From positions 4,182 through 68,181 of the forward strand of contig CAZZFS010000004.1 of the NCBI GenBank assembly GCA_964653805.1: DNA of 64,000 nt. Direction: 5' to 3'. A program made the position numbers and the translations under genes. Under the pieces are notes generated by a model. The model did no database searches. It had not been told where the DNA came from and was given only the letters and a program-made list of their open reading frames with translations. The stretch is from an uncultured Clostridiaceae bacterium. GTDB lineage: Bacteria > Bacillota > Clostridia > TANB77 > CAG-465. The first letter of the stretch is position 1. Each line of letters starts with the position of its first letter. Shown here piece after piece: positions 7,033 through 64,000 of this stretch.

Positions 7033-7087
7033 TACATTCAATTGAAATTTTTATTTCTTAAATTGGAGGTGAAATGTATTTAAGTTT

Positions 7088-7255
7088 AAAAATAGCGCAT
7101 GAATATATATTATATATATAAATATGTATTGACGAGGATGATAGTTGTCGAAAAAATCAGCGGATTCTATCACGGTAATCTAGTATCGTAATATATAGTA
7201 CAAAGAGTGAAATTTATCTATCACTACAAAAAGCTATATAATCTAGTAAAAAAAA
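7088..7255 (+). ncRNA. glmS ribozyme: glmS ribozyme (GlcN6P-responsive self-cleaving riboswitch)
   Basis: AUAGCGC cleavage-site motif. The core UUGACGAGGAUG AUAG UUGUCGAAAAAAUCAGCGGAU UCUAUC ACGG closely matches the Bacillus glmS core, with GAUAG/CUAUC covarying against GGAGG/CCUCC. The downstream AAAGAGUGAAAU...UCACU element is present. It lies in the 5'UTR of glmS. Confidence 0.85.
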
Positions 7256-23014: not shown

Positions 23015-23166
23015 TTATTACACCTCCTTAATATATAAAAAAAATTTTTGTAAGACACTACCTAAACGTTTATAGTGTCAAACAAAAATTAAATCTTTTT
23101 ATTTGAATATAAACCTCGGTAGGAATTATGGTTAATACCACCTACTGTCTTAAGTTTTATCTTTTT

Positions 23167-23850
23167 TTATTTTGATGATGGATTTATTTTTATTCCAGCA
23201 CCCATTGTTGTTGTTATTGCAACTGATCTTAAGTAAGTTCCTTTTGCAGCAGCAGGTTTAGCTTTTACTACAACTTCCATTAAAGCAGCGTAGTTTTGTT
23301 TTAACTTTTCTGCACCAAATGAAACTTTACCTATTGGGCAATGCATTATATTAGTTTTATCTAATCTATATTCAATTTTACCAGCTTTGATATCATTGAT
23401 TGCTTTTACAACATCAACAGTTACAGTTCCAGATTTAGGATTTGGCATAAGACCTTTAGGTCCTAATAATTTTGCAATTTTACCAAGAGATGCCATCATA
23501 TCTGGTGTAGCAATAATAGCGTCAAATTCAAACCAATTTTCTTTTTGAATTTTTTCTATCATGTCAACATCACCAACAAAATCAGCTCCAGCTTCTTGTG
23601 CTTGTTGAGCTTTTTCACCTTTAGCAAGTACTAAAACTTTTTTTGTTTTACCAGTTCCGTTTGGAAGAACTAACACACCTCTAACTTGTTGGTCTGCTTG
23701 TCTTGAATCTACACCTAATTTAATATGTAATTCAACTGTTTCATCAAATTTTGCTTTAGGCATTTTTAAAGCTATATCAATAGCTTCATTAATATCATAA
23801 AGTTTACCTGGTTCAACTAACTTTTCAGCTTCTATCATTCTTTTGCTCAT
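23167..23850 (-). CDS. rplA: 50S ribosomal protein L1
   Basis: Start corrected to [10 protein letters not shown] (ATG at 23850) with a GGGGGG RBS. The track's start at 23898 would abut rplK. Confidence 0.9.
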
Positions 23851-26683: not shown

Positions 26684-26757
<74 letters not shown>

Positions 26758-49388: not shown

Positions 49389-50630
49389 TTACAAAGGTTT
49401 TTTTATATATTCAAGTGCTTTTTGTAATTGTGTATCTTTGTCTTTAGGTATAACTGTTTCATTTTTTACATCTTCAGGTAAATCCACTTTTATATTTGGT
49501 TCAATTCCATTTTTATGAATTTCTATTCCACTTGCAGTATAATATTTTGATGTTGTAATTGAAATAGCATCTCCAAATGATAATCTTTCTATTGTTTGAA
49601 CTATTCCTTTTCCGTAAGTTTTATTTCCTATTAAAATTCCTTTTTGTGAATCTTTAACTGCACTTGCAAGAATTTCAGATGCACTTGCACTACTTGAGTT
49701 AACAAGCACTACTAATGGTATATTTATTACAGATGTTCCTTCAGAATTATATACTTTAGTAGAACCATCTTTTTTTACTAATTTTAAAACTTCACCTTTT
49801 GGTAATAATAAACTTAATATATCTATTGTTTCATTAACTAATCCACCAGGATTATTTCTTAAATCTATAACAAGTCCTGATACATTTTTTGCTTTTAAAG
49901 CTTCATACTCTGCTTTAAATTGATCACAAATTCCATTTTCAAAAGACCATATTTTTATATAACCTATATTGTTTTCTAAAACTTCTGATTCTGTGTTATT
50001 AGTAACTATTTTTTTTCTCATTGCTTCTTTTGTAATTAATTCTTCGCCTCTTTTTACTTTTAAAGTAACTTTTGTTCCTGCGACACCTTTTAATTTTTCA
50101 ACCGCTTCTTTATAATTATCAATTGTTACAACCATATCGTCAACTTGTAAAATAACATCATTATTTTTCAATCCTGCTTCTAAAGCTGGCGAATTAGGCA
50201 TTAAACCTAAAATTAATATTCCATTTCTTTTAACATCATATGTTATATGAACTCCAATACCGTCATATTCTTCTTTTCCTTCAACAAGCATTTTATCATA
50301 TTCTTCTTTTGATACATATCTTGTATATGGATCTCCAGTTGCTTCAGCCATACCATCAATTGCACCTTCAACAACTTTTTCCATATCTACGTCATCTACA
50401 TATTCTGTTTGGATTTTAACCATAGCTTCTTTTATTCTATCAAGATATTGTTGTGTTTCTTTTGAGTTTTCAACAGCTGCTTTACTGCTTTTTTCCGTTA
50501 TTTTAGGCGAAATTATAATATACAATGATATTGCAACTATCCCTACCAATAATATTGTAATAGAAGCTGTAAGCGCATTACTAACTACTTTCCACTTATC
50601 TATTTTTTTATTTTCATCATTTTCATTCAT
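49389..50630 (-). CDS. ctpA: S41 family C-terminal processing protease with PDZ domain
   Basis: N-terminal TM helix, PDZ domain, and S41 catalytic region (GLVIDLRNNPGG...SASASE). Confidence 0.85.
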   Translation of the reverse strand: MNENDENKKIDKWKVVSNALTASITILLVGIVAISLYIIISPKITEKSSKAAVENSKETQQYLDRIKEAMVKIQTEYVDDVDMEKVVEGAIDGMAEATGDPYTRYVSKEEYDKMLVEGKEEYDGIGVHITYDVKRNGILILGLMPNSPALEAGLKNNDVILQVDDMVVTIDNYKEAVEKLKGVAGTKVTLKVKRGEELITKEAMRKKIVTNNTESEVLENNIGYIKIWSFENGICDQFKAEYEALKAKNVSGLVIDLRNNPGGLVNETIDILSLLLPKGEVLKLVKKDGSTKVYNSEGTSVINIPLVVLVNSSSASASEILASAVKDSQKGILIGNKTYGKGIVQTIERLSFGDAISITTSKYYTASGIEIHKNGIEPNIKVDLPEDVKNETVIPKDKDTQLQKALEYIKKPL

Positions 50631-50906
50631 TTTATCAAACCCCTTTTTATTATTATTTCTAATCTTTTAGTTTATTATATATCAAACTAAAAAATTAGTC
50701 AACATTATTTTTTAGTTTTAAATTTTTTATTGTTTTTTATTAATTTGTTTTATTTTATTATTAAGTTAATTTATATTTTATTAATAATTATAATACTAAT
50801 ATCTTAATTTAATAACAACATTTACAATTTCAGTTGACAATTTTCTTCACTTAAATTAAAATTATAATATAAGTTACGGTAATGTTAAAGAAGGTGGTTA
50901 ATTATA

Positions 50907-51521
50907 ATGAAAAATTATTACAAAATATTAGAAGTTAATGAAAATGCTTCCAAAGAAATTATAAACAAAATTTTTAAAATTCATATAAAAAAAAATCACC
51001 CTGACCTATTTAATGGTGAAGAAAAAATACTTATGGAAGAAAAAGTTAAAGAAATTAATGAAGCATACGAAATTTTATCAGATGAACAAAAAAGAAAAAA
51101 TTATGATGATGAATTAAAGCAAGAACAAAACAATATTATTAATGATAAAGCTTTAATCTTAATCGAAGAAAATAAATATTTAAAAGAATTGTTGCAAAAA
51201 AAAGAACAATTAATAAATGATTTTTTATCTAGCACTAATACCGAAATTAATGATTATGAAAACGATATTGAAAATTTCTTTAATAATGAAAATAATATTA
51301 ATGATAATTATGATGAAAACAATACTTTTTCAACTGAATATGAATATGAAAATAAAAATTATACATTTAAAGAAACTATTTTAAATTTTTTTAATGATAA
51401 TTCTATATTTCTAAAAAAAATTTTATTTAGTATTTTACTCATTATAGTTGGTTTTATATTTATTGAAAAATTAACTGGAATAAATTTATTAGGAGAATTA
51501 ATAAATGTTTTTTTAAATTAA
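50907..51521 (+). CDS. J-domain protein with C-terminal TM anchor
   Basis: YYKILEV...HPD J-domain motif, low-complexity N/D/E linker, C-terminal hydrophobic helix. Confidence 0.6.
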   Translation: MKNYYKILEVNENASKEIINKIFKIHIKKNHPDLFNGEEKILMEEKVKEINEAYEILSDEQKRKNYDDELKQEQNNIINDKALILIEENKYLKELLQKKEQLINDFLSSTNTEINDYENDIENFFNNENNINDNYDENNTFSTEYEYENKNYTFKETILNFFNDNSIFLKKILFSILLIIVGFIFIEKLTGINLLGELINVFLN

Positions 51522-51673
51522 ATAACAAGAAATTCAAAAATGTTATTTCCTTTATTTTTAAGATATTTAGCCATTATTGTTGACATTTATATCAAAAGAT
51601 TGTATACTTAATAGGCAATAATTATAAATTTATTTATTTACCCATTTATTGTATGAAAAAGGAGTGAAATATT

Positions 51674-53143
51674 ATGAAAAGAACAAAAATAGTTGCTACA
51701 ATAGGACCTGCAAGTCAAAATATAGAAGTATTAGAACAACTTATTAAAGCAGGTATGGACGTTATGAGACTTAACTTTTCTCATGGCGACCACGAAGAAC
51801 AACTAGAAAAAATAGAGACTTTAAGAAAATTAAATGAAAAATTAGGAACAAGCGTAGCTTTTTTACTTGATACAAAAGGTCCTGAAATAAGATCAGGGGT
51901 ATTTGCAGATGGACAAAAACATCAATTAACTAAAGGTGATAAAATCATATTAACAACTAGAAATGTAGAATGTGATGATAATACTATATCTGTATCATAT
52001 GAAGGTTTAGTTGATGATATTGATGTTGGTTTCCATATCCTTATTGATGATGGTTTAATTGACTTAGTTATCGATAAAAAATTAAATGAAACTGATTTAG
52101 AATGTACTATCCAAAATAGTGGATTAATTGGTAACAAAAAAGGTGTTAATGTACCTAAAGCAAAATTAAAATTAAAAGCAATGACTGAAAAAGATATTAG
52201 TGATATAAAATTTGCAGTTGAACAAGATTTAGATTTTATAGCAGCTTCATTTGTTAGAAAAGCTTCAGATGTTTTAGAAATAAGAGAATTACTTACATCT
52301 TTAGGAAACGATAGAATTAAAATAATATCTAAAATAGAAAATGAAGAAGGTATTGAAAATTTTGAAGAAATTTTAAAAGTATCTGATGGAATAATGGTAG
52401 CTCGTGGTGATTTAGGAGTTGAAATTCCAATTGAACAATTACCATCTGTACAAAAAATGATGATAAGAAAAACTGTAGAAGCAGGAAAACCAATTATAAC
52501 AGCAACACAAATGTTAGATTCTATGCAAAAAAATCCAAGACCTACTCGTGCTGAAGTATCAGACGTTGCAAATGCAGTATATGATGGTTCATCAGCAGTA
52601 ATGCTATCTGGAGAATCAGCTCAAGGTGATTACCCAGTTGAATCAGTAAAAGTAATGGCTAAAATAATAAAAGAAAGTGAAAAAAATATTGATTACTGGA
52701 AAAGATTTAAAAGAAAAAATATTGAAAAATTTTCTAACTTTATTAAACCAGAAAATTTAGATGAAATGTATGAATTTAAAAAACAAACTAACTTTGCAGT
52801 ATGTTGTTCAGCTATGTTTGCTAATGCAGATGCAATTATAGCAATATCTGAACATGCAATAACACCATCTATGTTATCTAGTTTCAAACCAGGTTGCCCT
52901 GTTTATGTAATAACAGCTAATTTACATACATACAGACAAATGAGTCTTGAACATGGAACAACTGGTATATATCTTCCTGGAGTTTATGATTTTGATAAAA
53001 TTTTAAACCAAGGAATAGAAGTTTTAAAAGAAAAAAAATTAATTAAAGAAAATGATACTGTAGTACTAAGTGGTGGATATCCAAATGATGCTCACACTGA
53101 TTTCTTAAGTTCTCAAGCAACTGGTACTATAATAAGAATATAA
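51674..53143 (+). CDS. pyk: pyruvate kinase
   Basis: MKRTKIVATIGPAS N-terminus and full PK barrel plus C-domain, 489 aa. Confidence 0.95.
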   Translation: MKRTKIVATIGPASQNIEVLEQLIKAGMDVMRLNFSHGDHEEQLEKIETLRKLNEKLGTSVAFLLDTKGPEIRSGVFADGQKHQLTKGDKIILTTRNVECDDNTISVSYEGLVDDIDVGFHILIDDGLIDLVIDKKLNETDLECTIQNSGLIGNKKGVNVPKAKLKLKAMTEKDISDIKFAVEQDLDFIAASFVRKASDVLEIRELLTSLGNDRIKIISKIENEEGIENFEEILKVSDGIMVARGDLGVEIPIEQLPSVQKMMIRKTVEAGKPIITATQMLDSMQKNPRPTRAEVSDVANAVYDGSSAVMLSGESAQGDYPVESVKVMAKIIKESEKNIDYWKRFKRKNIEKFSNFIKPENLDEMYEFKKQTNFAVCCSAMFANADAIIAISEHAITPSMLSSFKPGCPVYVITANLHTYRQMSLEHGTTGIYLPGVYDFDKILNQGIEVLKEKKLIKENDTVVLSGGYPNDAHTDFLSSQATGTIIRI

Positions 53144-53269
53144 TATTACTAAATTTTAAAGATAATTTACACAAAAAAATATAAACTTTAACCATATATA
53201 TTGATTATTTTATCTTTTTATGTTAAAATGTATTAGTAATGTTAAAAAAATTTAAAAGGAGGATTTAAA

Positions 53270-53455
53270 ATGGCAAAATGTGAAGTATGCGCTAAAGAAT
53301 TAAATTTCTCACTACAAGTGAGTCACTCTCATAGAAGAACAGCTAGAACTTGGAAACCAAATATTCAAACTGTTAAAGTAAATAATAATGGAAATACAAA
53401 AAAAATGAAAGTATGTACAAAATGTTTAAAGAGTGGAAAAGTTCAAAGAGCTTAA
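53270..53455 (+). CDS. rpmB: 50S ribosomal protein L28
   Basis: 61 aa with a VSHSHRRT...W.PN motif. Confidence 0.85.
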   Translation: MAKCEVCAKELNFSLQVSHSHRRTARTWKPNIQTVKVNNNGNTKKMKVCTKCLKSGKVQRA

Positions 53456-53586
53456 ATTTAATTATAGAAAAAATTTAATATTTTATATATTATTAGAGAT
53501 ATGAATACTAATTCATATCTCTTTTTTTGACAAAACTATAAAATTAGTGTAAAATGTATATAAATATATTAATAAAGGTGAATAAT

Positions 53587-54258
53587 ATGGAAAACAAAAA
53601 TACAAAAAAAAATAATAAAATGTATATTGAAACATCAAAAAAAGATTATATAAAAATGATAAAAATTTTAGAAGCTAGTTATCCAAATCCCAAATGCGGA
53701 TTGAATTTTAATACCCCTATTGAATTAGTTGTTGCTTTAATTTTAGCCGCCCAATGTACAGATGAAAGAGTTAATAAGATAGTTCCTATTCTATTTTCAA
53801 AATATCAAGATGTTTATCAATTAGCAAATGCTAAACAAAAAGATATATCAAAAATAATACACTCTTGTGGATTTTATAACAATAAATCAAAAAATATAAT
53901 TGAAACATCAAAAATAATAGTAAATATTTTTAATGGAATAATTCCTAAAACAATGGATGAACTTTGTACTTTAAAAGGTATCGGTAGAAAATCTAGCAAT
54001 ATTATTCTACAAGAATGTTTTAATATAACAGTAGGAATTGCTGTAGACACACATGTAACTAGATTAAGTAGAAAAATGGGGCTATCAAATAAAGCAACAG
54101 CAGATAAAATAGAACTAGAACTTACTACTAAAATAAACAAAAAATATTGGCCAATTTTAAATCATATACTTGTTTTACATGGCAGAGCAATATGTATTGC
54201 AAGAAGACCAAAATGTGATATTTGCCCTATAACTAATATTTGTCCAAAAAATAATTAA
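53587..54258 (+). CDS. nth: endonuclease III (HhH-GPD with 4Fe-4S cluster)
   Basis: HhH motif LKGIGRKS and a C-terminal Cx6CxxCx5C cluster ligand set. The start MENKN is preceded by an AAAGGTGA RBS. Confidence 0.85.
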   Translation: MENKNTKKNNKMYIETSKKDYIKMIKILEASYPNPKCGLNFNTPIELVVALILAAQCTDERVNKIVPILFSKYQDVYQLANAKQKDISKIIHSCGFYNNKSKNIIETSKIIVNIFNGIIPKTMDELCTLKGIGRKSSNIILQECFNITVGIAVDTHVTRLSRKMGLSNKATADKIELELTTKINKKYWPILNHILVLHGRAICIARRPKCDICPITNICPKNN

Positions 54259-54259
54259 A

Positions 54260-54295
54260 CCACTTAAATATGGATAACATATTTAAGTGGTTATT
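54260..54295. terminator. bidirectional rho-independent terminator
   Basis: ccacttaaatat-ggataac-atatttaagtgg hairpin between the convergent nth and sensor-kinase genes. Confidence 0.6.
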
Positions 54296-54322
54296 AATCT
54301 ATTTTATTATTTTTATTGTTTT

Positions 54323-56209
54323 TTAATTTTCAGGTTCATTATTTTCATTGTTTATTTTTTGCTCTTTGTTTTCATCTTTATTAATAACTTCACCTACATC
54401 ATCAACTTCAACTCCTGTTTTAGATTCTACAGTGATTTGATTTTCTTCTTTTTCTGAAGATTTAGGTATTTTAATAAAGAACGTTGTTCCATTTCCAAGT
54501 GAACTATCAAAACTAATATCACCTTTAAAAGAACCTACTATAACAGAATATACTAAATAAAGACCTAAACCAGTACCTTTAATACCTTTTGTTGTAAGTA
54601 TATTTTTAAATACAAAAGGTGATATTTTAACATCTATTCCGCCAGCAAAATCAATTACTTTAACTAATGCATTTTTACCATCTGAATCTTCTTCAACACT
54701 AATTATAATTTTACCACCATTATCTTCACCATAAGCTTGAGCTGCATTTACTACTAAATTTGTAAATACTTGTCCAAGTTTAGTAGGATCACCTTTTATA
54801 CTAACATCATCTTTAATATCGATGACAACATCAGATCTGTTTTTTGATATTTCATTATATGTTATTATTTTTATATCTTTTAAAACACTACTGATTTTAA
54901 AATCTACATCAGTATCTCCACCAAGATTTCTTATTTGGTTTCTCATACTATTTACAATAGTAATTATTTTATTAGCACAATTATCCATTCTAAATATAAT
55001 TTCTTTTTCTTGATCAGTTCTCTCACTTGTCATTGAACTTAACATTACAATACCAGTTTTTATAGCTGCTATTGGTGTATTTATATCATGTGCTACACCA
55101 CCAGCAAGTTCTCCTATAGAAACTAATTGACCTTGTTTTACAATTATATTTTGTTTTTCTTCAAGTTCAACCATATCTAATTTATGCTGTGTAATATCTT
55201 TAAAAAGTAATAATGTACCTATGTACTCATTACCTGTATTAGATTTTATTGGTTGAATATCCACTTCAAAATATTTATCCTTATCCTTTACTTTTAAAGT
55301 ATATTCTAATATAATTTTTTCATTTTTTTCTATTGACAAAGAAATTGCATTTTTTAATTTATCAAAAGTATCTTTATTATGTTCTTTTAAAAACAAAAAT
55401 AAATTTTCCACCTTATTATTTTCTAATAATTCATTAAAATTTTCTTTAAAAGATCTATTCATATCAACAATTGAACCATCAGTAGATACAACAACAAAAG
55501 AATCCGACATTGTATTTGTAATTGTTTTCAAAGCAACTGGTGTTATATTTAAAATTTTATATTTTATTATTGCTATTGCATAAAAAATTAAAGTAATAAC
55601 AAATAACATAGGTGTCACGTATATTGATATATTAATAATTCTCAAAGTTCCCATTATATTAACAATTAAAGGTATCAAACTACCAATTACAATTAAAGCT
55701 GTTTGAATAGAAAAAAAACCTGATTTTTTTATAGACGCTTTTATCATTATTATTATAAATAGTACCATTAAAATATAAGAATAACCACTATTAACATAAA
55801 ACATAGGACCATATATTGCTTCACTAAAATTTACAGAATAGTGTTTATAAAATAAATTATGATAATCATTTGTCCATAATATAATCAATGATAATATAGG
55901 TATTATACTTAAACAAAATATTTTTAAATTATTTATTTTTGCACCCCAATATTTAATAGACATTATTAAAGCTATTGGTGGTGTAAAACAAATACCTATA
56001 TAAGTAATATAGTCAAAATATATAGGATTTCCTGTTGAATTTAATTTAATAAATATAGATTGTCCTAATAAACCTAAACACCAAACTGTCAACATAAAAA
56101 ACATAACCGACATTATATTTGACACATTTAATTTTTCGAATTTTAATTTTATCATTCCTATTAATGATAAACATATTATAATACAAAAAATTAATAATAT
56201 TTCAATCAT
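54323..56209 (-). CDS. membrane sensor histidine kinase (N-terminal ~7TM domain, PAS-like linker, HisKA, HATPase_c)
   Basis: H-box LAGGVAHDINTP. N, G1 and G2 boxes (NLVVNAAQA, DFAGGI, GTGLGLYLV). Multiple N-terminal TM helices. GGAGG RBS lies 28 bp after the NRPS stop. Confidence 0.8.
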   Translation of the reverse strand: MIEILLIFCIIICLSLIGMIKLKFEKLNVSNIMSVMFFMLTVWCLGLLGQSIFIKLNSTGNPIYFDYITYIGICFTPPIALIMSIKYWGAKINNLKIFCLSIIPILSLIILWTNDYHNLFYKHYSVNFSEAIYGPMFYVNSGYSYILMVLFIIIMIKASIKKSGFFSIQTALIVIGSLIPLIVNIMGTLRIINISIYVTPMLFVITLIFYAIAIIKYKILNITPVALKTITNTMSDSFVVVSTDGSIVDMNRSFKENFNELLENNKVENLFLFLKEHNKDTFDKLKNAISLSIEKNEKIILEYTLKVKDKDKYFEVDIQPIKSNTGNEYIGTLLLFKDITQHKLDMVELEEKQNIIVKQGQLVSIGELAGGVAHDINTPIAAIKTGIVMLSSMTSERTDQEKEIIFRMDNCANKIITIVNSMRNQIRNLGGDTDVDFKISSVLKDIKIITYNEISKNRSDVVIDIKDDVSIKGDPTKLGQVFTNLVVNAAQAYGEDNGGKIIISVEEDSDGKNALVKVIDFAGGIDVKISPFVFKNILTTKGIKGTGLGLYLVYSVIVGSFKGDISFDSSLGNGTTFFIKIPKSSEKEENQITVESKTGVEVDDVGEVINKDENKEQKINNENNEPEN

Positions 56210-56237
56210 TTAACCCCTCCTTAAGTACTAAAACAAG

Positions 56238-59200
56238 TTAATTATTATTTAAAAACTTAACAGCTTTCAAATATTCAATATATTTTTTTATATAATTTTC
56301 ATCTATTTTCTTCCACTCAAAACCAATTTCGTTTAAATATTTTATTGTATTATATGAAGTTATTTCTATATTTGTTGAATAATCTAATAAATTATTTTCA
56401 TTTATATCATTTATTATACCAATTATTTTTTTTGTTGAATTTTCATCTTCAAGAATTTTTTTTATATAATTTGAAAACTCTATATCTTCTATAACACTTA
56501 TTTTTATTCCTATTTTTTTCAAAATTTTTAAAAATTCACTTACATTTACATGATTATGATTATATACATGAAAAGTATTATGATTCATATTAAAGTATTG
56601 CATAACTTTAACTATAAATTCACTAGCTAAATCAACAGGTGTAAATTCCAAATACATATTATAACAATTTTTTGGAATATAACCTATATCTACTATAGAT
56701 TTTAACCTTCCTGTAAAAGCATTTTCTTCTATATTATCCTGAAATTTCAAATCACTATATCTTCCTGTAAGATTACCACATCTTATTATGTTTGCCTTAA
56801 GTCCTTTATTAATATATTCTAATACACATTCTTCAGCTTTAAATTTTGTATATATATATACATTATCAACATTTTGATTTTTAAAAAAACATGTTTCATC
56901 AAATATATTTTTTTGATTTTCATTAGATTTTTGTTTAACATAGGCTGCTTCAAAAGCGTTTCCGGAAACACTTATAGTAGAAATATGTATCATTTTTTTA
57001 TTTTTATTATAGCAATATTCGGCTACATTTTCAGTACCTTTAACATTTATATCAAAGAAAAATTCTTTACTACCATAATGTTTAACACAAGCAGCAGAAT
57101 GAACTACAAATTCTATTTTTTTTGATATTTCTGGATATCTATCCATTCCTAAATTTTTTTCAATTATATCTCCATCTAAAGCAAAAATTCTTTTATCTAA
57201 TAATTCATCATATTTATCACCAAAATAATAATTTAATTTAAGTTTTAGTCTTTCTTTAGAAGTTAAATTGTTTTTGCTTCTTACCAAACAATAAACATTT
57301 ACTTTTTCTTTTTCTAAAATTTCACTAACAACATGAGAACCTAAAAATCCAGTTACTCCTGTAACTAAAATATCACTTAACGGTTTATATTCAGGTTTGA
57401 TATTAAAATTTTTGTTAGAATTTAATATATTAGAAAAATCTTTATTGTAATTTGATATATCAAATTCTTTTATTTTAATACTCTCTTCTATTTTTTTTGA
57501 TATTTCCCTTATGGTATAAAATTTAAATATATCCGAATATTCTATATTTATTTCTTTTTTCAAAAGTTCTATTCTTAATTTTATCGCATCAAGAGAATCT
57601 CCTAATTCAAAAAAATTTGTATCAATACCAAATTTTTTATCTTTAAATATAAATTTCCAAGAATCAAAAATTTCTTTTTGTATATTTGTTGTAGGCATAC
57701 TTAATTCTTGATTTATTAAATTTAATTTATATTCTAATATTTTTTTTCTGTCTATTTTTCCATTTGCTGTTAAAGGAAATTTATCTAATTTTATAAAAAC
57801 ACTTGGTATCATATATAAAGGTAATTTTTTTTGTATAACCCCTCTAAAATATTCATTTTCATATTCTTTGTTTTTATCAATATAATAACATATAATTTTT
57901 TGATCTTTAAATACAACTACTGCATCTTCTACTCTAATAAATTTAACAATATTTTTTTCTATTTCTTCTAATTCTATCCTTTGACCATTTAACTTTATTT
58001 GAAAATCAGTTCTACCCAATATTTTTAATTCTTGTTCAAAATCAATTAAAGCTAAATCACCTGTTAAATATATTTTATCTTTTATAAATTTATTATTTAT
58101 AAATTTTTCTTCTGTTAATTTAACATTATTATAATATCCCTTTGATACTGATTCACCAGATATAGCTAATTGTCCTTCTATTTGATAAGGTAATAAACGA
58201 TTTTTATTATCTAATATATATAATTTTGTGTTTTGTATTGGTTTGCCAGCTGTTATTTCATTTGTTTTTGTTATATCTTTAATTGTTGACCAAATAGTGG
58301 TTTCAGTTGGACCATATACATTTATTATACTAGAATTAGTTATTTTTTTTAATTTCTTTATATAATCTTCTGGTAAAGTTTCTCCACCTAATAAAACTTT
58401 TTTCATATTTTTTATATATTCCAAATTATTATTATCAGATGTTAATAATCTTAATTTTGTAGGAGTTGTTTGAATTATATCAACGTTATTTTTTATACAT
58501 AAACTATTCAATAAAGATGAATCAAGTTGTTCTTTTTCATTTGATAAAACTAATTTTGCCCCATTTAAAAATGTAAGCCAAATTTCCAATCCAAATATAT
58601 CAAATGAAATCGTAGTTATCGAAACTACATTTTCTTCTTTTGATATTTTTATATTTTCATTTATACCAAATAAAAAATTAATTAAATTATAATTATTTAT
58701 CATAACTCCTTTTGGGTTTCCTGTTGAACCAGAAGTATAAATTAAATATACTAAATTATCAGATAAAATTTCTAAATCCAAATTAAAATTAGATGTATTA
58801 TCATTTAAATTATTTACATTAATAGCATTATCTGAAATAAAATCACAAGATTTACTAGTAACAACATATTTAGCATTACTATTTTCTAATATATATTTAA
58901 CTCTCTCTTCAGGATATTCTGGATCAATAGGTATATATGTTCCACCACATTTTAAAATAGCCAATAAAGCTGAAATTAAAACTTCATTTCTATTCATATA
59001 TACTGCTATTATATCACCAATTTCCACACCTTTTTCTTCTCTTAAATAATGTGCTAATTGATTTGCTTTTTCATTTAATTCTCTATATGTCATTTTTTTA
59101 TCTTCAAACACTAAAGCAATATTATCTGGTGTTTTTTCAACTTGTTCTTCAAATAATTGTATAACAGTTTTATCTTTTGGATAATCTCTATCTGTATCAT

Positions 59201-60533
59201 TAAATTCATATAATATTTTATGTTCTTCTTCAACACTCATTATGCGAATATCTTCTACAGTAACCTCTTCATTGCTAAGAGCATCTTCTATTATTGCAAT
59301 AAGTCTAGTATGTAAATATTTTATTTCAATTTTATCAAATACATCAATTAAATAATCATAATATATTTCTAATTTACCTTCATTATTTATATCAACTATA
59401 TGTATATCTAAATCATCTTGAATACAATTCGGTTCTTTCCATATAGCATTATATTTTTTATTATCAGAATAATTTGCTCTTGCATTTTGATACGACAAAA
59501 CAATATTATACAAATTAGCTTTTATATCTGTCTTAGAATGAACTTCTTTTATAATTTCACTATATGGATATTTTTGATGCCTAAAAATAGACATTGTATC
59601 GCAAGAAACAGCTTTTAATAAATCTCTAAATTTAATATTTTCTTCAATTTTAAATCTCATTGGTATCGTAGAAATAAACATACCAAGCATTTGTTTTTCT
59701 TTAAAATTTGATCTATTTAAAACTGGTGTTCCTATAATAAAATCATTTATATCTTTTATTCTATATATATAAGTTGAAAGTGCTGTTAAAAACAATACAT
59801 ATGGTGAAACTTTATTGTTTTTACAATACATGTTAATTTTTTCATTTAGTTCTTTATCTAATTTAACAATATATCTTTTAGATTCTTTATTTATTTTTTT
59901 TGAAACGTTTTTTAAAGCTACTGGTTCATTTATATCTTTCAAATATTCATTCCAAAATTCTTCATCTTTTTTATATTTATCTGATTCCATATATTGTTTT
60001 TCAGAGTTTATATATTCTATATAACTTGGCACTTCTAAATCATTTTCAATATTATTGTATAGTTTTTCATATATTTTAGAATATTGTGTAGCAACTTGAA
60101 TAAGTCCCCAAGCATCTGATATTATATGATGAAACTTATAATAAATACATGTTTTCATATTAGGTAATTTAATTATTTTAAATTCATATAATTTTTCTCC
60201 TAATATATTTATTGGTTTTAACATTTCATTTTTTATATATGTATTAAAATCTTTTTCACTTAATAAAGACATATCCAAAACTTCTATATTTTGTTTTTTA
60301 AATTCTCTAATATATTGTAAAGGTTCTTCACCTTTTTTTATTATATTTAATCTAAGAGCTTCATTATTTTTAATTAATTCATTTAATACTTCATTATGAA
60401 TATCATATTTAAATTCATCATTTTTAATATAAAATACTCCTGCTATATTGTTTATATTGCTACCATCATTTACCAATTCAACCATCCAAATATTTTTTTG
60501 CGGATTTGTTAATTCATAATATTCTTTCTTCAT
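56238..60533 (-). CDS. single-module nonribosomal peptide synthetase, C-A-T-R (terminal thioester reductase)
   Basis: C domain with HHIISDAWG (HHxxxDG). A-domain cores LIYTSGSTGNPKGV (A3), NVYGPTE (A5), YLTGDLA (A7), GRTDFQIKLNGQRIELEEIE (A8), LPLTANGKIDRK (A10). Carrier motif FFELGDSLDAI. R domain with TGVTGFLGSHV NAD(P)-binding motif and YTKFK (YxxxK). Confidence 0.85.
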   Translation of the reverse strand: MKKEYYELTNPQKNIWMVELVNDGSNINNIAGVFYIKNDEFKYDIHNEVLNELIKNNEALRLNIIKKGEEPLQYIREFKKQNIEVLDMSLLSEKDFNTYIKNEMLKPINILGEKLYEFKIIKLPNMKTCIYYKFHHIISDAWGLIQVATQYSKIYEKLYNNIENDLEVPSYIEYINSEKQYMESDKYKKDEEFWNEYLKDINEPVALKNVSKKINKESKRYIVKLDKELNEKINMYCKNNKVSPYVLFLTALSTYIYRIKDINDFIIGTPVLNRSNFKEKQMLGMFISTIPMRFKIEENIKFRDLLKAVSCDTMSIFRHQKYPYSEIIKEVHSKTDIKANLYNIVLSYQNARANYSDNKKYNAIWKEPNCIQDDLDIHIVDINNEGKLEIYYDYLIDVFDKIEIKYLHTRLIAIIEDALSNEEVTVEDIRIMSVEEEHKILYEFNDTDRDYPKDKTVIQLFEEQVEKTPDNIALVFEDKKMTYRELNEKANQLAHYLREEKGVEIGDIIAVYMNRNEVLISALLAILKCGGTYIPIDPEYPEERVKYILENSNAKYVVTSKSCDFISDNAINVNNLNDNTSNFNLDLEILSDNLVYLIYTSGSTGNPKGVMINNYNLINFLFGINENIKISKEENVVSITTISFDIFGLEIWLTFLNGAKLVLSNEKEQLDSSLLNSLCIKNNVDIIQTTPTKLRLLTSDNNNLEYIKNMKKVLLGGETLPEDYIKKLKKITNSSIINVYGPTETTIWSTIKDITKTNEITAGKPIQNTKLYILDNKNRLLPYQIEGQLAISGESVSKGYYNNVKLTEEKFINNKFIKDKIYLTGDLALIDFEQELKILGRTDFQIKLNGQRIELEEIEKNIVKFIRVEDAVVVFKDQKIICYYIDKNKEYENEYFRGVIQKKLPLYMIPSVFIKLDKFPLTANGKIDRKKILEYKLNLINQELSMPTTNIQKEIFDSWKFIFKDKKFGIDTNFFELGDSLDAIKLRIELLKKEINIEYSDIFKFYTIREISKKIEESIKIKEFDISNYNKDFSNILNSNKNFNIKPEYKPLSDILVTGVTGFLGSHVVSEILEKEKVNVYCLVRSKNNLTSKERLKLKLNYYFGDKYDELLDKRIFALDGDIIEKNLGMDRYPEISKKIEFVVHSAACVKHYGSKEFFFDINVKGTENVAEYCYNKNKKMIHISTISVSGNAFEAAYVKQKSNENQKNIFDETCFFKNQNVDNVYIYTKFKAEECVLEYINKGLKANIIRCGNLTGRYSDLKFQDNIEENAFTGRLKSIVDIGYIPKNCYNMYLEFTPVDLASEFIVKVMQYFNMNHNTFHVYNHNHVNVSEFLKILKKIGIKISVIEDIEFSNYIKKILEDENSTKKIIGIINDINENNLLDYSTNIEITSYNTIKYLNEIGFEWKKIDENYIKKYIEYLKAVKFLNNN

Positions 60534-60535
60534 TA

Positions 60536-60829
60536 CTAAATTGCCCCCTTATATTGCAAAGCATTAAATTCATATAACCTTAAATTGAAAAAAAAGTTAT
60601 AGAAACAGTCGCCTAATACCCCTTTAAAATCAATTAAAGAGTTGACGATACTATTTATAACTTTTTTTAATTTAAACCCAAAATTAGAGCTTTCACTATA
60701 AGGTATTTCATATTGCATAAATACCCCTTTTAATATATCTATATTTTTTACATTTCCTATTTTATCTTTTAAATTAATTAATATATATTTTCTCGAAATC
60801 AAAGAAACTAAATTGAATTGATTACCCAT
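60536..60829 (-). CDS. small hypothetical protein (97 aa) translationally coupled to the NRPS
   Basis: Its last codons (AAGGGGGCAATTTAG) contain the RBS for the NRPS ATG, which lies 2 nt after the stop. No recognisable family (not MbtH-like). Confidence 0.5.
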   Translation of the reverse strand: MGNQFNLVSLISRKYILINLKDKIGNVKNIDILKGVFMQYEIPYSESSNFGFKLKKVINSIVNSLIDFKGVLGDCFYNFFFNLRLYEFNALQYKGAI

Positions 60830-60965
60830 GTATTCATTCCTCTTTCTATGTCAAAGACTACATAACATTCAAATAAATCATTAATTAAAATTATAGCACA
60901 TAATTAAAACTAATTCAACTTTTTTTAAAATAATTAATTAAAATCATTTAAAATTATATAATTTA

Positions 60966-60994
60966 TTGACAAAATAAATTATTTGTGTTATTAT
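60966..60994 (+). promoter_or_regulatory. TTGACA-17-TATTAT promoter for tRNA-Leu
   Basis: Consensus -35 and a near-consensus -10, about 12 nt upstream of the tRNA 5' end. Confidence 0.55.
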
Positions 60995-61006
60995 ATTAGA
61001 GTAATC

Positions 61007-61091
61007 GCGGGTATGGCGGAATTGGCAGACGCGCTGGACTTAGAATCCAGTGTCAAACGACGTGAAGGTTCAAGTCCTTTTACCCGCACCA
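61007..61091 (+). tRNA. tRNA-Leu (anticodon UAG), class II with long variable arm
   Basis: GCGGGTA acceptor, anticodon loop CUUAGAA, long extra arm, T-arm GGTTCAAGTCC, encoded CCA. Followed by a terminator hairpin at 61096-61136. Confidence 0.8.
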
Positions 61092-61133
61092 AATAAAAAG
61101 TTATAAATATCTTAATTGATATTTATAACTTTT

Positions 61134-61595
61134 TTATTTTTTATAAACTATGTAATGATCTTCCATGTAAACCTCATAAGCTTTCAAATCTACATTTTTT
61201 TTATTCATCCTTAGCTTTTTTATTTCAGTCATATTAGTAGATAATTCAATCAGCTCCTTGCCTATTTTTTTTTCATATAGTTCTGCTAATTTATAAAAAA
61301 ACACATCAAAACATACAATATTTCCAAGAGACGCAAAACAAAATCTTAATACACATATTTTAAAATCATTTTCAAGATATATTTCTTTATCTTTCATTTC
61401 ATTTAAAAGATGAACTTTTGTATTTCCAGCTTCTTTTAAATCTTCAATCACAATTTTACAAACATCAAAACAAAATTTTTCAAAATCAAAACTAAACTCC
61501 GGTAATTTCATTTTTTTAAAATCCAAATCAAATATGTATCCATATTCTAAATCTCGATTTTTGTTCATAAGCTTATAGTACATTTCCCCCTCCAA
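61134..61595 (-). CDS. hypothetical protein
   Basis: ORF only. Confidence 0.4.
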   Translation of the reverse strand: MEGEMYYKLMNKNRDLEYGYIFDLDFKKMKLPEFSFDFEKFCFDVCKIVIEDLKEAGNTKVHLLNEMKDKEIYLENDFKICVLRFCFASLGNIVCFDVFFYKLAELYEKKIGKELIELSTNMTEIKKLRMNKKNVDLKAYEVYMEDHYIVYKK

Positions 61596-61702
61596 ATAAA
61601 ATTTTATTTGTATAAATAAATAATTGGTACCATCATTATAGCACCAATCATTTATATTTTCAATACATTATTTTTTTAACTTAAATCTTAATGTTTTTCT
61701 AT

Positions 61703-64000
61703 TTAACTTAATAAATCAAACATATCCATTTGTTCTGATCTTGGCATATCTTTTAAGCATCCTGCATTTTTTAAAACTTCTACTGCTACTTTACCAAGTT
61801 TTGCACTCATAGTCATTTGTTCTATTGAAGTAAATCTACCTTTTTCTCTTGCTACAACTAATTTTTCTGAATCAACTTCTCCAAAACCAGTTAATGATGA
61901 AAGTGGTGGTCTAATCCCATTTTCTTCAACTATGAATTTTTTCCAATCTGATAAATAAATATCTACTGGTAAGAAATTTATATTTCGCTCGTTCATTTCA
62001 AGTACAAGTTCTAGTATTGGATACATATTTTTTTCTTTTGTTGTTGCATTATTTCCTAAACTATCAATTTCTTTCATTTTAGCTCTTACTCGTTCTTTTC
62101 CATATAACATTGAATCACTATCGAATTCATCTGCTCTTATAGAGAAAAAAGATGCATAATATGCTGCTGGAATATGTACTTTAAACCATGCTATTCTAAA
62201 AGCCATTGTTACATAAGCTGCAGCATGTGCTTTTGGAAACATATATTTTATTTTTTTACAAGAATCTATATACCATTCTGGAATACTATATTCAACCATT
62301 AAAGCTTCTTGTTCTTCAGTTAAACCTTTACCTTTACGAACACATTCCATTATTTTAAATGATGGATTAGGTGGCAAACCTTGTCCTATTAAATATGTCA
62401 TTATATCATCCCTTGTACATATTGCTTCATTTAGTGTTGTTGTTCCTTCTTGTATTAATGTTTGTGCATTATTTAACCATACATCTGTACCATGAGATAA
62501 GCCTGATATTCTTATTAATTCTTCAAATGTTGTTGGTCTTGTATCGACTAACATACCTCTTACAAATTTAGTTCCAAACTCTGGAACACCAAAAGTTCCA
62601 ACTTCTGAATTAATCTGTTCTGTTGTTAATCCTAAAGATTCAGTAGAACTAAATATTGCCATTGTTTCTTTGTCATCTAAAGGTATTTCTTTTGGATCAA
62701 CACCTGTTATATCTTGTAGCATTCTAATCATAGTTGGATCGTCATGTCCTAGTATATCAAGTTTTAATAGATTTTTATCTATTGAGTGATAATCAAAATG
62801 AGTAGTTATTATACTAGATCTTGGATCATCTGCTGGATGTTGTACTGGACAAAATTCATAAATTTCTCTTCCTTTTGGTACAACTATTATACCTCCTGGA
62901 TGTTGTCCAGATGTCCTTTTTATGCCAGTACATCCTTTTGAAATCCTAACAATTTCAGGATTTAACATTACTTTATTTCTTTCTTCTAAATATTTAAGAA
63001 CAAATCCATATGCTGTTTTATCCGCAACTGTACCTATTGTACCAGCTTTGTATGTTGTACCTTTTCCAAATATAACTTCTGTATATTTATGTGCTTTAGC
63101 TTGATATTCACCAGAGAAGTTAAGATCTATATCTGGTTCTTTATCTCCATTAAATCCTAAAAACGTTTCAAACGGTATATCCATACCATCTTTCACAAGA
63201 TTTGTTTCACATTCTGGACATTTTTTATCTGGTAAATCAAATCCATTTTTAAAACCATAATCTGAAAAATCAGAATATTTACAATTTGGACATCTATAAT
63301 GTGGTCTTAATGAATTAACCTCAGTAATCCCTGTTAAATATGCTGCAAAAGATGATCCAACTGATCCCCTTGAACCAACTAAATAACCATCTTCATTTGA
63401 TTTCCAAACTAATTTTTGAGCAATTATATACATTACTGAGAATCCATTTTTAATTATAGAATCAAGTTCTTTTACAACTCTTTCTTCTACAATATCTGGT
63501 AATGGATCACCGTACAATTCTTTTGCTTTTTCTCTTGCAATATCTTCAATTTCTTTTTCACAGCCCTCAATATGTGGTGGACATTTTTCATCAGATATTG
63601 GTGTTATTGCATCGCATAAATCTGCAACTTTATTTGTATTTGTAACTACTACTTCATATGCCTTTTCTGGGCCTAAATATTCAAATTCAGCAAGCATTTC
63701 TTCTGTTGTTCTATAATATAGTGGTGCTTGTTTATCTGCATCACTATATCCTTGTCCTGCCATAATAATTCTTCTATATATTTCATCTTCTGGATTTAAA
63801 AAATGACTATCACAAGTAGCAACAACTAGTTTATTATTTTTTTCACCAACTTCAACTATTTTTTTATTTATATCAATTAAATCTTGAACTGAATTTAACA
63901 TACCTTTATCTAAATAAAATTGATTATTCCCTAAAGGTTGTATTTCTAAATAATCATAATAATTAGCTATTTTATCAATTTTTTCTTCAGATTCTTTATT
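61703..64000 (-). CDS. polC: DNA polymerase III PolC-type, C-terminal ~765 aa (5' part of gene lies beyond window end)
   Basis: Pol III alpha signature [21 protein letters not shown] and a Zn-finger CPNCK...CPEC. The reading frame stays open upstream of the track's Met through 64000, across the conserved DYLEIQP motif. Confidence 0.85.

Follow-up and report, generated by a model that had tools for sequence, protein, structure and literature searches.

A conserved, allelically exchanged pair of a reductase-terminated peptide synthetase and a seven-transmembrane sensor kinase in uncultured Clostridia: a possible signal synthase with its receptor

Why is a nonribosomal peptide synthetase (NRPS) that ends in a thioester reductase encoded in one compact operon with a sensor kinase? 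The question is raised by a locus at positions 54,323 to 60,829 of a stretch of 64,000 nucleotides (nt) from an uncultured Clostridiaceae bacterium (GenBank assembly GCA_964653805.1, contig CAZZFS010000004.1), hereafter called the window, in which a small open reading frame (ORF) of 97 amino acids (aa), a single-module NRPS and a seven-transmembrane (7TM) histidine kinase follow each other on the minus strand. All coordinates given below are positions in this window, and L-numbers (L001, L007 etc.) denote relative loci that were fetched for comparison. A first-pass annotation of the sequence had regarded the company of NRPS and kinase as an unusual pairing. In relatives, this pairing turns out to be the conserved core of the locus: an NRPS followed by a kinase is a two-gene unit that is maintained in uncultured gut and animal Clostridia. 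Furthermore, close relatives differ by a joint exchange of the NRPS region that defines the product and of the kinase's sensor half, and the 7TM domain co-varies with the adenylation domain across the family. Due to the conserved pairing, the cassette exchange and this co-variation, the locus may be read as a self-contained operon of a signal synthase and its cognate receptor, a reading for which we consider the chances to be about evenly balanced.

The adjacency of NRPS and kinase was checked in 96 loci. In a kinase-first scan with one genome per GTDB species, 339 species genomes matched and the 80 best loci were kept, whose domains were annotated by phmmer with the window's own domains as queries. 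All of these 80 loci belong to uncultured genomes designated 'Clostridia bacterium' or 'Clostridium sp. CAG:465 / CAG:1219 / CAG:921'. An NRPS ending in a carrier (T) and a thioester reductase (R) domain, or in an R domain only where the contig is cut, is located directly upstream of the kinase in all 79 loci with upstream DNA. The gap between both genes is at most 45 nt in approximately 80 of 90 gaps, and overlaps are common. Starting from the NRPS, the kinase was found immediately downstream in 7 out of 7 fetched contexts, which represent at least three different genomic neighbourhoods, and a metagenome scan added 9 out of 9 loci with downstream DNA (16 out of 16 NRPS-first loci in total). 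In the literature searched, which excluded the primary paper on this NRPS family, neither a kinase partner nor a cassette exchange is mentioned for the family.

Homologues of the window NRPS fall into two main size classes, single-module enzymes of about 1430 aa with 55-67% identity and two-module enzymes of about 2450-2500 aa in metagenome-assembled genomes of gut Clostridia. The former consist of condensation (C), adenylation (A), T and R domains in the order C-A-T-R and occur in about 30 species representatives; the latter, of which many with 35-68% identity to the window NRPS were found, are arranged as C-A-T-C-A-T-R and occur in about 45. Three-module variants of 3036 aa and at least 3326 aa are present in L040 and L051, respectively, in the same operon type.

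The C-A-T-R architecture with a terminal thioester reductase, already proposed in the first-pass annotation, is confirmed for C, A and R by Pfam. The A domain matches AMP-binding (PF00501, aa 461-801, 266 bits) and TIGR01733 (369 bits, above the cut-off of 317), and the R domain matches NAD_binding_4 (PF07993, aa 1057-1306, 148 bits) as well as TIGR01746 with 175 bits, under its cut-off of 213. In case of the T domain, the PP-binding score (PF00550) of 17.7 bits is below the cut-off of 20.8, but the sequence contains the GDSL serine motif and the carrier domain is recognised in relatives of the NRPS. The catalytic motifs are conserved throughout: HHxxxD of the C domain in 80 of 81 relatives, and in the R domain the GxxGxxG glycines in 86-87 of 87 family members, the S-T motif in 87 (S) and 85 (triad Thr) of 87, and both Y and K of YxxxK in all 87.

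The C domain is N-terminal without a preceding carrier domain, a position consistent with a starter role. Its best match among solved structures is 7C1K/7C1H with 81 bits, which we take to be the lipoinitiation Cs domain of RzmA, followed at a margin of 1 bit by the C domains of BacC and TycC (80 bits). For the C-A-T part, LgrA is the best solved-structure match (748 bits). The nearest NCBIfam equivalogs are AusA, matched over its C-A-T-R half with 688 bits (cut-off 2500), and MxcG, matched end to end with 447 bits (cut-off 2300). Both scores are far below the curated cut-offs and the window NRPS is thus an equivalog of neither.

Alignment of the A domain to GrsA-PheA, a check suggested along with the first-pass annotation, yields the code DILQLGVIWK, which is of the glycine type; the ten positions were located by the GrsA-PheA numbering, which was internally consistent. 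At least 18 further distinct single-module loci share this code. A published survey of 2051 A domains lists DILQLGMIWK as a Gly-activating code; its main Gly code cluster comprises 12 codes and 83 of 93 Gly domains, with variation at positions 299, 322, and 330 (PMC12283262). The window code differs from DILQLGMIWK at position 322 alone. For the two-module architecture the products are N-acyl dipeptide aldehydes, for example N-octanoyl-Met-Phe-H (Clostridium BGC0001686) and the ruminopeptin N-acyl-Leu-Glu-H (PMC8518294).

The initial link of the window enzyme to dipeptide aldehydes and pyrazinones therefore requires a distinction: the kinship with the peptide-aldehyde NRPSs of gut Clostridia (35-68% identity) holds, but a dipeptide or pyrazinone is ruled out as product of this enzyme due to its single N-acylating module. 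Based on the one N-acylating module, the glycine-type code and the R domain, N-acyl-glycinal or N-acylethanolamine is the predicted product. A precedent for the further reduction is linear gramicidin, in which the R domain of LgrD and LgrE convert the Gly-S-carrier via glycinal to ethanolamine at the C-terminal glycine. The window differs from this system in that no LgrE-like aldoreductase is found among the annotated genes flanking the operon.

A joint exchange of NRPS and kinase parts is seen in comparison with L007, a very close relative with the same synteny and flanks of 95-100% nt identity, in which the NRPS has two modules and 2455 aa. The earlier statement that a second module is lacking is thus correct for the window and incorrect for the same site in this sister genome. 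Sliding nt identity between both loci is 95-100% from 61043 to about 59090, drops to 54-77% with an additional 3-kb indel from there to about 55200, and returns to 93-100% past this point, except for two dips of 86-91% at 50.7-51.4 kb. Conserved are the small ORF (89% aa), the C domain (98-99% aa), and the dimerisation/phosphotransfer (DHp) and catalytic (CA) domains of the kinase (100% aa). Replaced are the A-T-R part of the NRPS (against A-T-C-A-T-R in L007) and the 7TM and PAS domains of the kinase, which are 20-66% identical (7TM 43%).

For the kinase-sensor part of the block, a synonymous divergence (dS) of about 1.0 was obtained, compared to 0.07-0.08 in the conserved gene segments, so that the block represents an old allele acquired via recombination and not a product of rapid local change. 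Both breakpoints are situated in strongly conserved motifs, the upstream one where the A domain begins, following LTYRELNEKANQLA, and the downstream one at GTLLLFKDITQHK, where the PAS domain ends. A third relative, L107, carries a further cassette, and three alleles are seen in the species group of the window; comparable mosaics occur in other species pairs. A metagenome scan with the conserved C domain for more alleles in close relatives returned nothing above 54% identity.

Since the closest genome carries a two-module allele at the same site and the T domain of the window enzyme scores below the Pfam cut-off, the single-module gene might be considered a decaying remnant of a two-module synthetase from which nothing useful is made. 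We regard this as scarcely credible: the ORF is complete with all catalytic motifs intact, dN/dS against L005 is 0.27, C-A-T-R enzymes occur in the approximately 30 species representatives mentioned above with the same Gly code in at least 18 distinct loci, and the cassette is a different and old allele (dS about 1). The more specific derivation of the window NRPS from the L007 enzyme, by a deletion through recombination between A1 and A2, was rejected as well, because its A-T-R part is just 34% identical to the second module of L007.

Co-variation of the sensor with the product-defining domains was also analysed beyond the closest relatives, in 78 non-redundant loci, with a single-module subset of n=27. 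In a partial Mantel test of the 7TM domain against the last A plus R domains, given the kinase catalytic domain (KCAT) and the first C domain (C1), r is 0.48 (p<=0.0005), compared to 0.13 for PAS and 0.06 for KCAT in the same test. The code of the last A domain is shared with the nearest neighbour in 57 of 78 loci if neighbours are defined by the 7TM domain, in 34 if defined by the C domain, and in 27 if defined by KCAT. The eight loci whose 7TM domains are closest to that of the window kinase are all single-module and Gly-type, six with the identical code and two with DILQIGAIWK, despite the fact that its closest catalytic domain is that of the sister genome.

Physical linkage could produce such a pattern. 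In the single-module loci, however, the association of 7TM and A given KCAT (r=0.81) exceeds that of C1 and A (0.53), even though C1 lies nearer to A than the 7TM domain does, and it amounts to 0.57 (p=0.0002) with the intervening R domain controlled; pure linkage is thus disfavoured. An anecdotal case that agrees with the co-variation is L091 (7637-13737), in which the NRPS has the A code DLTKIGEVGK (Asn/Asp-like) and the DHp/CA part of the kinase matches the window clade, but the N-terminal 415 aa of the kinase form a different multi-transmembrane sensor with a loop of about 110 aa and without a match to HisKA_7TM.

Against this background the NRPS could also be envisaged to make a secreted electrophilic inhibitor of host or competitor proteases, with a kinase that responds to an external signal from host, nutrients, or envelope in place of the product and tunes the operon or other genes. 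The N-acyl dipeptide aldehydes of the two-module relatives inhibit cathepsins and proteasomes (PMC8518294). Kinases are often encoded inside biosynthetic clusters, an intracellular cue could be bound by the PAS domain, and adjacency explains a part of the 7TM-A co-variation; moreover, breakpoints vary and one pair of loci (L058-L074) keeps its 7TM domain after an A swap. A role as inhibitor nevertheless gives no reason why, of the two kinase halves, the sensing one and not the catalytic one should swap along with the NRPS half that defines the product, and it leaves unexplained both the 7TM-A association that survives R-domain control and the joint occurrence of a new sensor type and a polar A code in L091. 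In addition, an N-acyl-glycinal would lack a P1 side chain and thus be a poor specific inhibitor. We consider protease inhibition with an unrelated regulatory kinase, the main rival reading, rather unlikely as the explanation of the locus.

With regard to the kinase itself, HisKA_7TM, HisKA, and HATPase_c all score above their Pfam cut-offs, and a low-complexity acidic tail is present at the end of the protein. H374 in the motif AHDINTP is invariant among 47 kinase homologues. In an AlphaFold2 (AF2) model based on 47 homologues, pLDDT is 76-93 per 10-residue block for aa 1-210 with an overall mean of 72.6, and the membrane domain consists of seven helices with a short beta-hairpin loop (121-133) and no sizeable extracytoplasmic domain. 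The modelled shape would be compatible with a membrane-embedded ligand site. Foldseek with the kinase model returned PAS-DHp-CA kinases such as 4GCZ; this part dominated the results and nothing was obtained for the 7TM domain. No ligand is known for HisKA_7TM (PMC5847659).

The kinase had been termed an orphan, and locally this is the case, since no receiver-like ORF was detected in the 64 kb by phmmer (E<=1) with Spo0F and CheY as queries, nor a phosphopantetheinyl transferase-like ORF with Sfp and AcpS, although this is a weak negative. The term does not extend to the whole family. In 36 loci of a distant two-module clade, a REC-HD-GYP regulator gene (approximately 354 aa, HHERFDGRGYP; Pfam Response_reg and HD_5) is situated downstream of the kinase on the same strand, starting at most 200 nt past the kinase stop in 14 of them. 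The arrangement in this clade is that of an operon of synthase, kinase, and RpfG-like regulator. Examples are L010 and L043-L089, e.g., L084:11714-12766.

Further variation was observed around the pair. In about 8 loci, inserted genes of about 4 kb separate the kinase from the REC-HD-GYP gene, including a TraG/type IV secretion system-like gene in L010. A second HisKA_7TM kinase paralogue is located beside or near the NRPS-kinase pair in L024 (11811-13577) and L030 (17859-19568). In 31 loci of the REC-HD-GYP clade, a divergent gene encoding an HtrA-like Trypsin-PDZ serine protease is found just upstream of the NRPS (e.g., L009:6087-7223), which may be plain synteny or may have relevance given the protease-reactive aldehyde products.

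The orphan state of the kinase in the window and in its clade would also be in line with indirect sensing, i.e., with a developmental kinase, for example one feeding Spo0A, that detects the perturbation of the membrane by a lipopeptide without binding it. KinC of Bacillus subtilis, which responds to surfactin, is a precedent. The host is apparently a spore former (yabP-yabQ-divIC are located directly upstream in L002-L004, and ctpB and veg are nearby), and the predicted product is amphiphilic. Generic membrane perturbation would not, however, need allele-matched sensor domains, and the adjacent partner in the distant clade is REC-HD-GYP and not Spo0A. Indirect sensing is therefore judged quite improbable.

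Taken as a signal synthase and receptor, the locus would work as follows. Judging from the domains, the starter C domain would N-acylate the glycine that the A domain loads on the carrier domain, and reductive release by the R domain would yield N-acyl-glycinal, which could be reduced further to N-acylethanolamine. As comparative genomics suggests, this lipid-like product would partition into the membrane and be sensed by the seven-helix domain of the kinase, followed by autophosphorylation on H374 and transfer of the phosphate to a regulator presumably encoded elsewhere. In the distant clade, this regulator would be the adjacent REC-HD-GYP protein, whose domain type is that found in cyclic-di-GMP phosphodiesterases. 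Strains would exchange an allelic cassette made up of the NRPS region that determines the product and the sensor of the kinase, with constant catalytic ends as in the staphylococcal agr system.

Several observations weigh against a synthase-receptor operon. Ligand and product are predictions from the genes and the phosphotransfer partner is hypothetical, and in the published work on the family the products are read as host-protease inhibitors and not as signals. On the biosynthetic side, the starter-type call for the C domain is based on its position and the 1-bit margin only. LgrA, initially a candidate for additional support of the Gly code, was dropped, since its Gly-activating module 2 has the differing code DIANLCIIYK; the glycine call thus rests on the match to the main Gly code group only. 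Judging from the sequence, release by the R domain may end with the aldehyde or proceed to the alcohol.

On the side of the kinase, the 7TM-encoding region adjoins that of the R domain and linkage accounts for part of the co-variation. In the pair L058-L074, the last A domain has changed yet the 7TM domains are 89% identical, and a linkage-free test, in which the first A domain is swapped and the last A-T-R is kept, provided two informative pairs, one for the association and one not. Moreover, the downstream breakpoints are not fixed, but occur at aa ~75-100 or coincide with one of two domain borders (7TM/PAS or PAS/DHp). Finally, neither the 64-kb window nor the loci of its clade yielded a response regulator, a REC-HD-GYP homologue was not found in the window, and the DHp domain of the window clade differs from that of the REC-HD-GYP clade.

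Several known systems share features with the locus. NRPSs for N-acyl dipeptide aldehydes of gut Clostridia were reportedly described by Guo et al. in 2017. Like the window enzyme, they begin with a C domain, end in an R domain, and belong to low-GC gut Clostridia; they also follow the same logic of N-acylation and reductive release (PMC8518294). They differ in having two modules (e.g., ruminopeptin of Ruminococcus bromii), whereas the window enzyme has one module with a Gly code. The domain order C-A-T-R with a terminal reductase is also found in MxcG (myxochelin) and in module 2 of AusA (aureusimine), but MxcG uses aryl donors and lysine, and the C domain of AusA is internal.

A synthase of a lipid-like signal beside a polytopic kinase without a large extracytoplasmic domain is likewise encountered in CqsA/CqsS, RpfF/RpfC/RpfG, and PhcB/PhcS, and RpfG has the same REC-HD-GYP architecture as the product of the third gene in the distant clade, which has no adjacent counterpart in the window. 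In contrast to these systems, the proposed synthase is an NRPS and the proposed sensor a HisKA_7TM protein here. The closest parallel for the cassette is staphylococcal agr (agrB-agrD-agrC), in which a contiguous hypervariable block spans the signal genes together with the membrane-sensing half of the kinase between conserved catalytic flanks in near-identical genomes; the predicted signal of the window differs in being non-ribosomal. Kinases that are encoded with, or respond to, a self-made peptide or lipopeptide are further represented by NisK/NisR, BacS (bacitracin), and KinC with surfactin; these kinases have sensors of other families, and a regulator lies next to them or, in case of KinC, they are unlinked.

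Somewhat short of an even chance is given by us to the wider proposal that the gut 'peptide aldehyde' NRPSs are primarily autoinducer synthases of a so far unrecognised Clostridia cell-cell signalling, each with a cognate 7TM kinase and, in some clades, with REC-HD-GYP output. If true, strains would carry exchangeable cassettes of signal and receptor (pherotypes), the widespread HisKA_7TM sensor domain would obtain its first candidate ligand class, and the window would represent a one-module glycine allele whose N-acyl-glycinal or N-acylethanolamine would resemble host endocannabinoid-like lipids. The NRPS-reductase family of gut Clostridia belongs to the small number of microbiome gene-cluster families whose products are known, and bacterial self-signalling with strain-specific dialects would be an alternative primary role for it that is now directly testable. 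It is also tempting to speculate that the glycine single-module alleles point to bacterial lipids of the N-acyl-glycinal or N-acylethanolamine type, which would be of interest for host signalling.

The 97-aa protein was initially listed as a partner of the NRPS without known family. The latter holds true, as no Pfam or NCBIfam match was obtained (E<=0.01), MbtH family included, but it is not a general partner. Homologues form 5 clusters in 5.8 billion proteins and comprise the proteins of L007 and an ENA contig (89% aa identity each), those of L005 and L006 (41%, with an in-frame deletion of 27 aa), and one fragment of 63 aa; in the remaining family loci the ORF was not found. In L107 (146-438), the region is frameshifted, with the N-terminal 63 aa in one frame and the conserved C-terminal motif in another, for which either a genuine pseudogene or an error in the assembly could account. 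A dN/dS of 0.35-0.48 and one stop in frame compared to 13-15 in the other frames indicate that the ORF is probably a real gene. Judging by its distribution, it is a lineage-restricted ORFan accessory and not a core part of the locus. The protein has no transmembrane segment, its AF2 single-sequence model (pLDDT 52, a helical hairpin) is uninformative, and the leader matches no Rfam family.

The co-directional and tightly spaced layout of the three genes described in the first-pass annotation was recovered in every detail (Table 1). The small ORF ends with TAG at 60538..60536, followed by 'TA' and the ATG of the NRPS at 60533, whose ribosome-binding site AAGGGGG is situated within the small ORF. 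Between the TAA of the NRPS (56240..56238) and the ATG of the kinase (56209), the 28-nt spacer contains AAGGAGGGG. Termination only after the kinase is likewise supported, since the hairpin at 54292..54258 is the sole terminator-like hairpin on the operon strand in a scan of 53000..62000. Promoter-like matches as listed in Table 1 are about as frequent in the AT-rich DNA here as in shuffled sequence. Misassembly, considered from the outset as a possible objection, is unlikely because 60719..49801, NRPS included, is reproduced with 100% identity in an independent Logan assembly (L001).

Table 1. Features of the NRPS-kinase locus and of the wider 64-kb window
Feature	Position	Strand	Remarks
97-aa ORF	60829..60536	minus	no known family; coupled to NRPS
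NRPS, 1431 aa, C-A-T-R, single module	60533..56238	minus	Pfam; NCBIfam thioester-reductase domain 1055-1428
Condensation domain, starter position	59211..60527	minus	aa 3-441; PF00668 256 bits; motif HHIISDAWG
Adenylation domain	57756..59153	minus	aa 461-926; code DILQLGVIWK, glycine type
Carrier (T) domain	57495..57632	minus	aa 968-1013; serine in ELGDSLD motif
Terminal thioester reductase (R) domain	56250..57371	minus	aa 1055-1428; NAD_binding_4
7TM-PAS sensor histidine kinase, 628 aa	56209..54323	minus	Pfam
Kinase 7TM, HisKA_7TM (PF16927)	56197..55538	minus	aa 5-224; 126 bits
Kinase PAS (PAS_9)	55504..55187	minus	aa 236-341
Kinase HisKA, H374	55114..54941	minus	aa 366-423; 30 bits
Kinase HATPase_c	54793..54461	minus	aa 473-583; 62 bits
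Exchangeable cassette	55200..59090	minus	NRPS aa ~495 to end (A-T-R) and kinase aa 1 to ~336 (7TM and PAS)
Terminator-like hairpin, 15-bp stem and T-rich tail	54292..54258	minus	31 nt past kinase stop
Promoter-like TTGAAT-17-TATAAT with extended TG, upstream of small ORF	60918..60890	minus	consensus scan
tRNA-Leu(tag)	61007-61091	plus	divergent from operon
tRNA-Leu promoter-like TTGACA-17-TATTAT	60966-60994	plus	
153-aa ORF between polC and tRNA-Leu	61134-61595	minus	ribosome-binding site GGAGGGGG; no Pfam/NCBIfam match
glmS ribozyme	7083-7249	plus	Rfam and ARAGORN scans
tmRNA, tag ADNNKLAFAA	18566-18919	minus	Rfam and ARAGORN scans
L10 leader	23074-23172	minus	Rfam and ARAGORN scans
Two tRNA-Gly(tcc) genes	26684-26757; 29255-29328		

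Genes annotated from about 48.1 to 64 kb are veg, ctpB, a gene with a DnaJ domain, pyk, rpmB (L28), nth, tRNA-Leu(tag), a 153-aa ORFan, and polC. Neither a second NRPS module nor a transporter was found among them, so that, together with the phmmer search of the 64 kb for a phosphopantetheinyl transferase, the absence of all three from the vicinity, as noted at first reading, is maintained. In the relatives L002-L004, yabP-yabQ-divIC occupy the upstream position in place of tRNA-Leu. The GC content of the window is 20-32% and mostly about 24%. The GC skew is negative nearly throughout, in agreement with the location of most genes on the minus strand.

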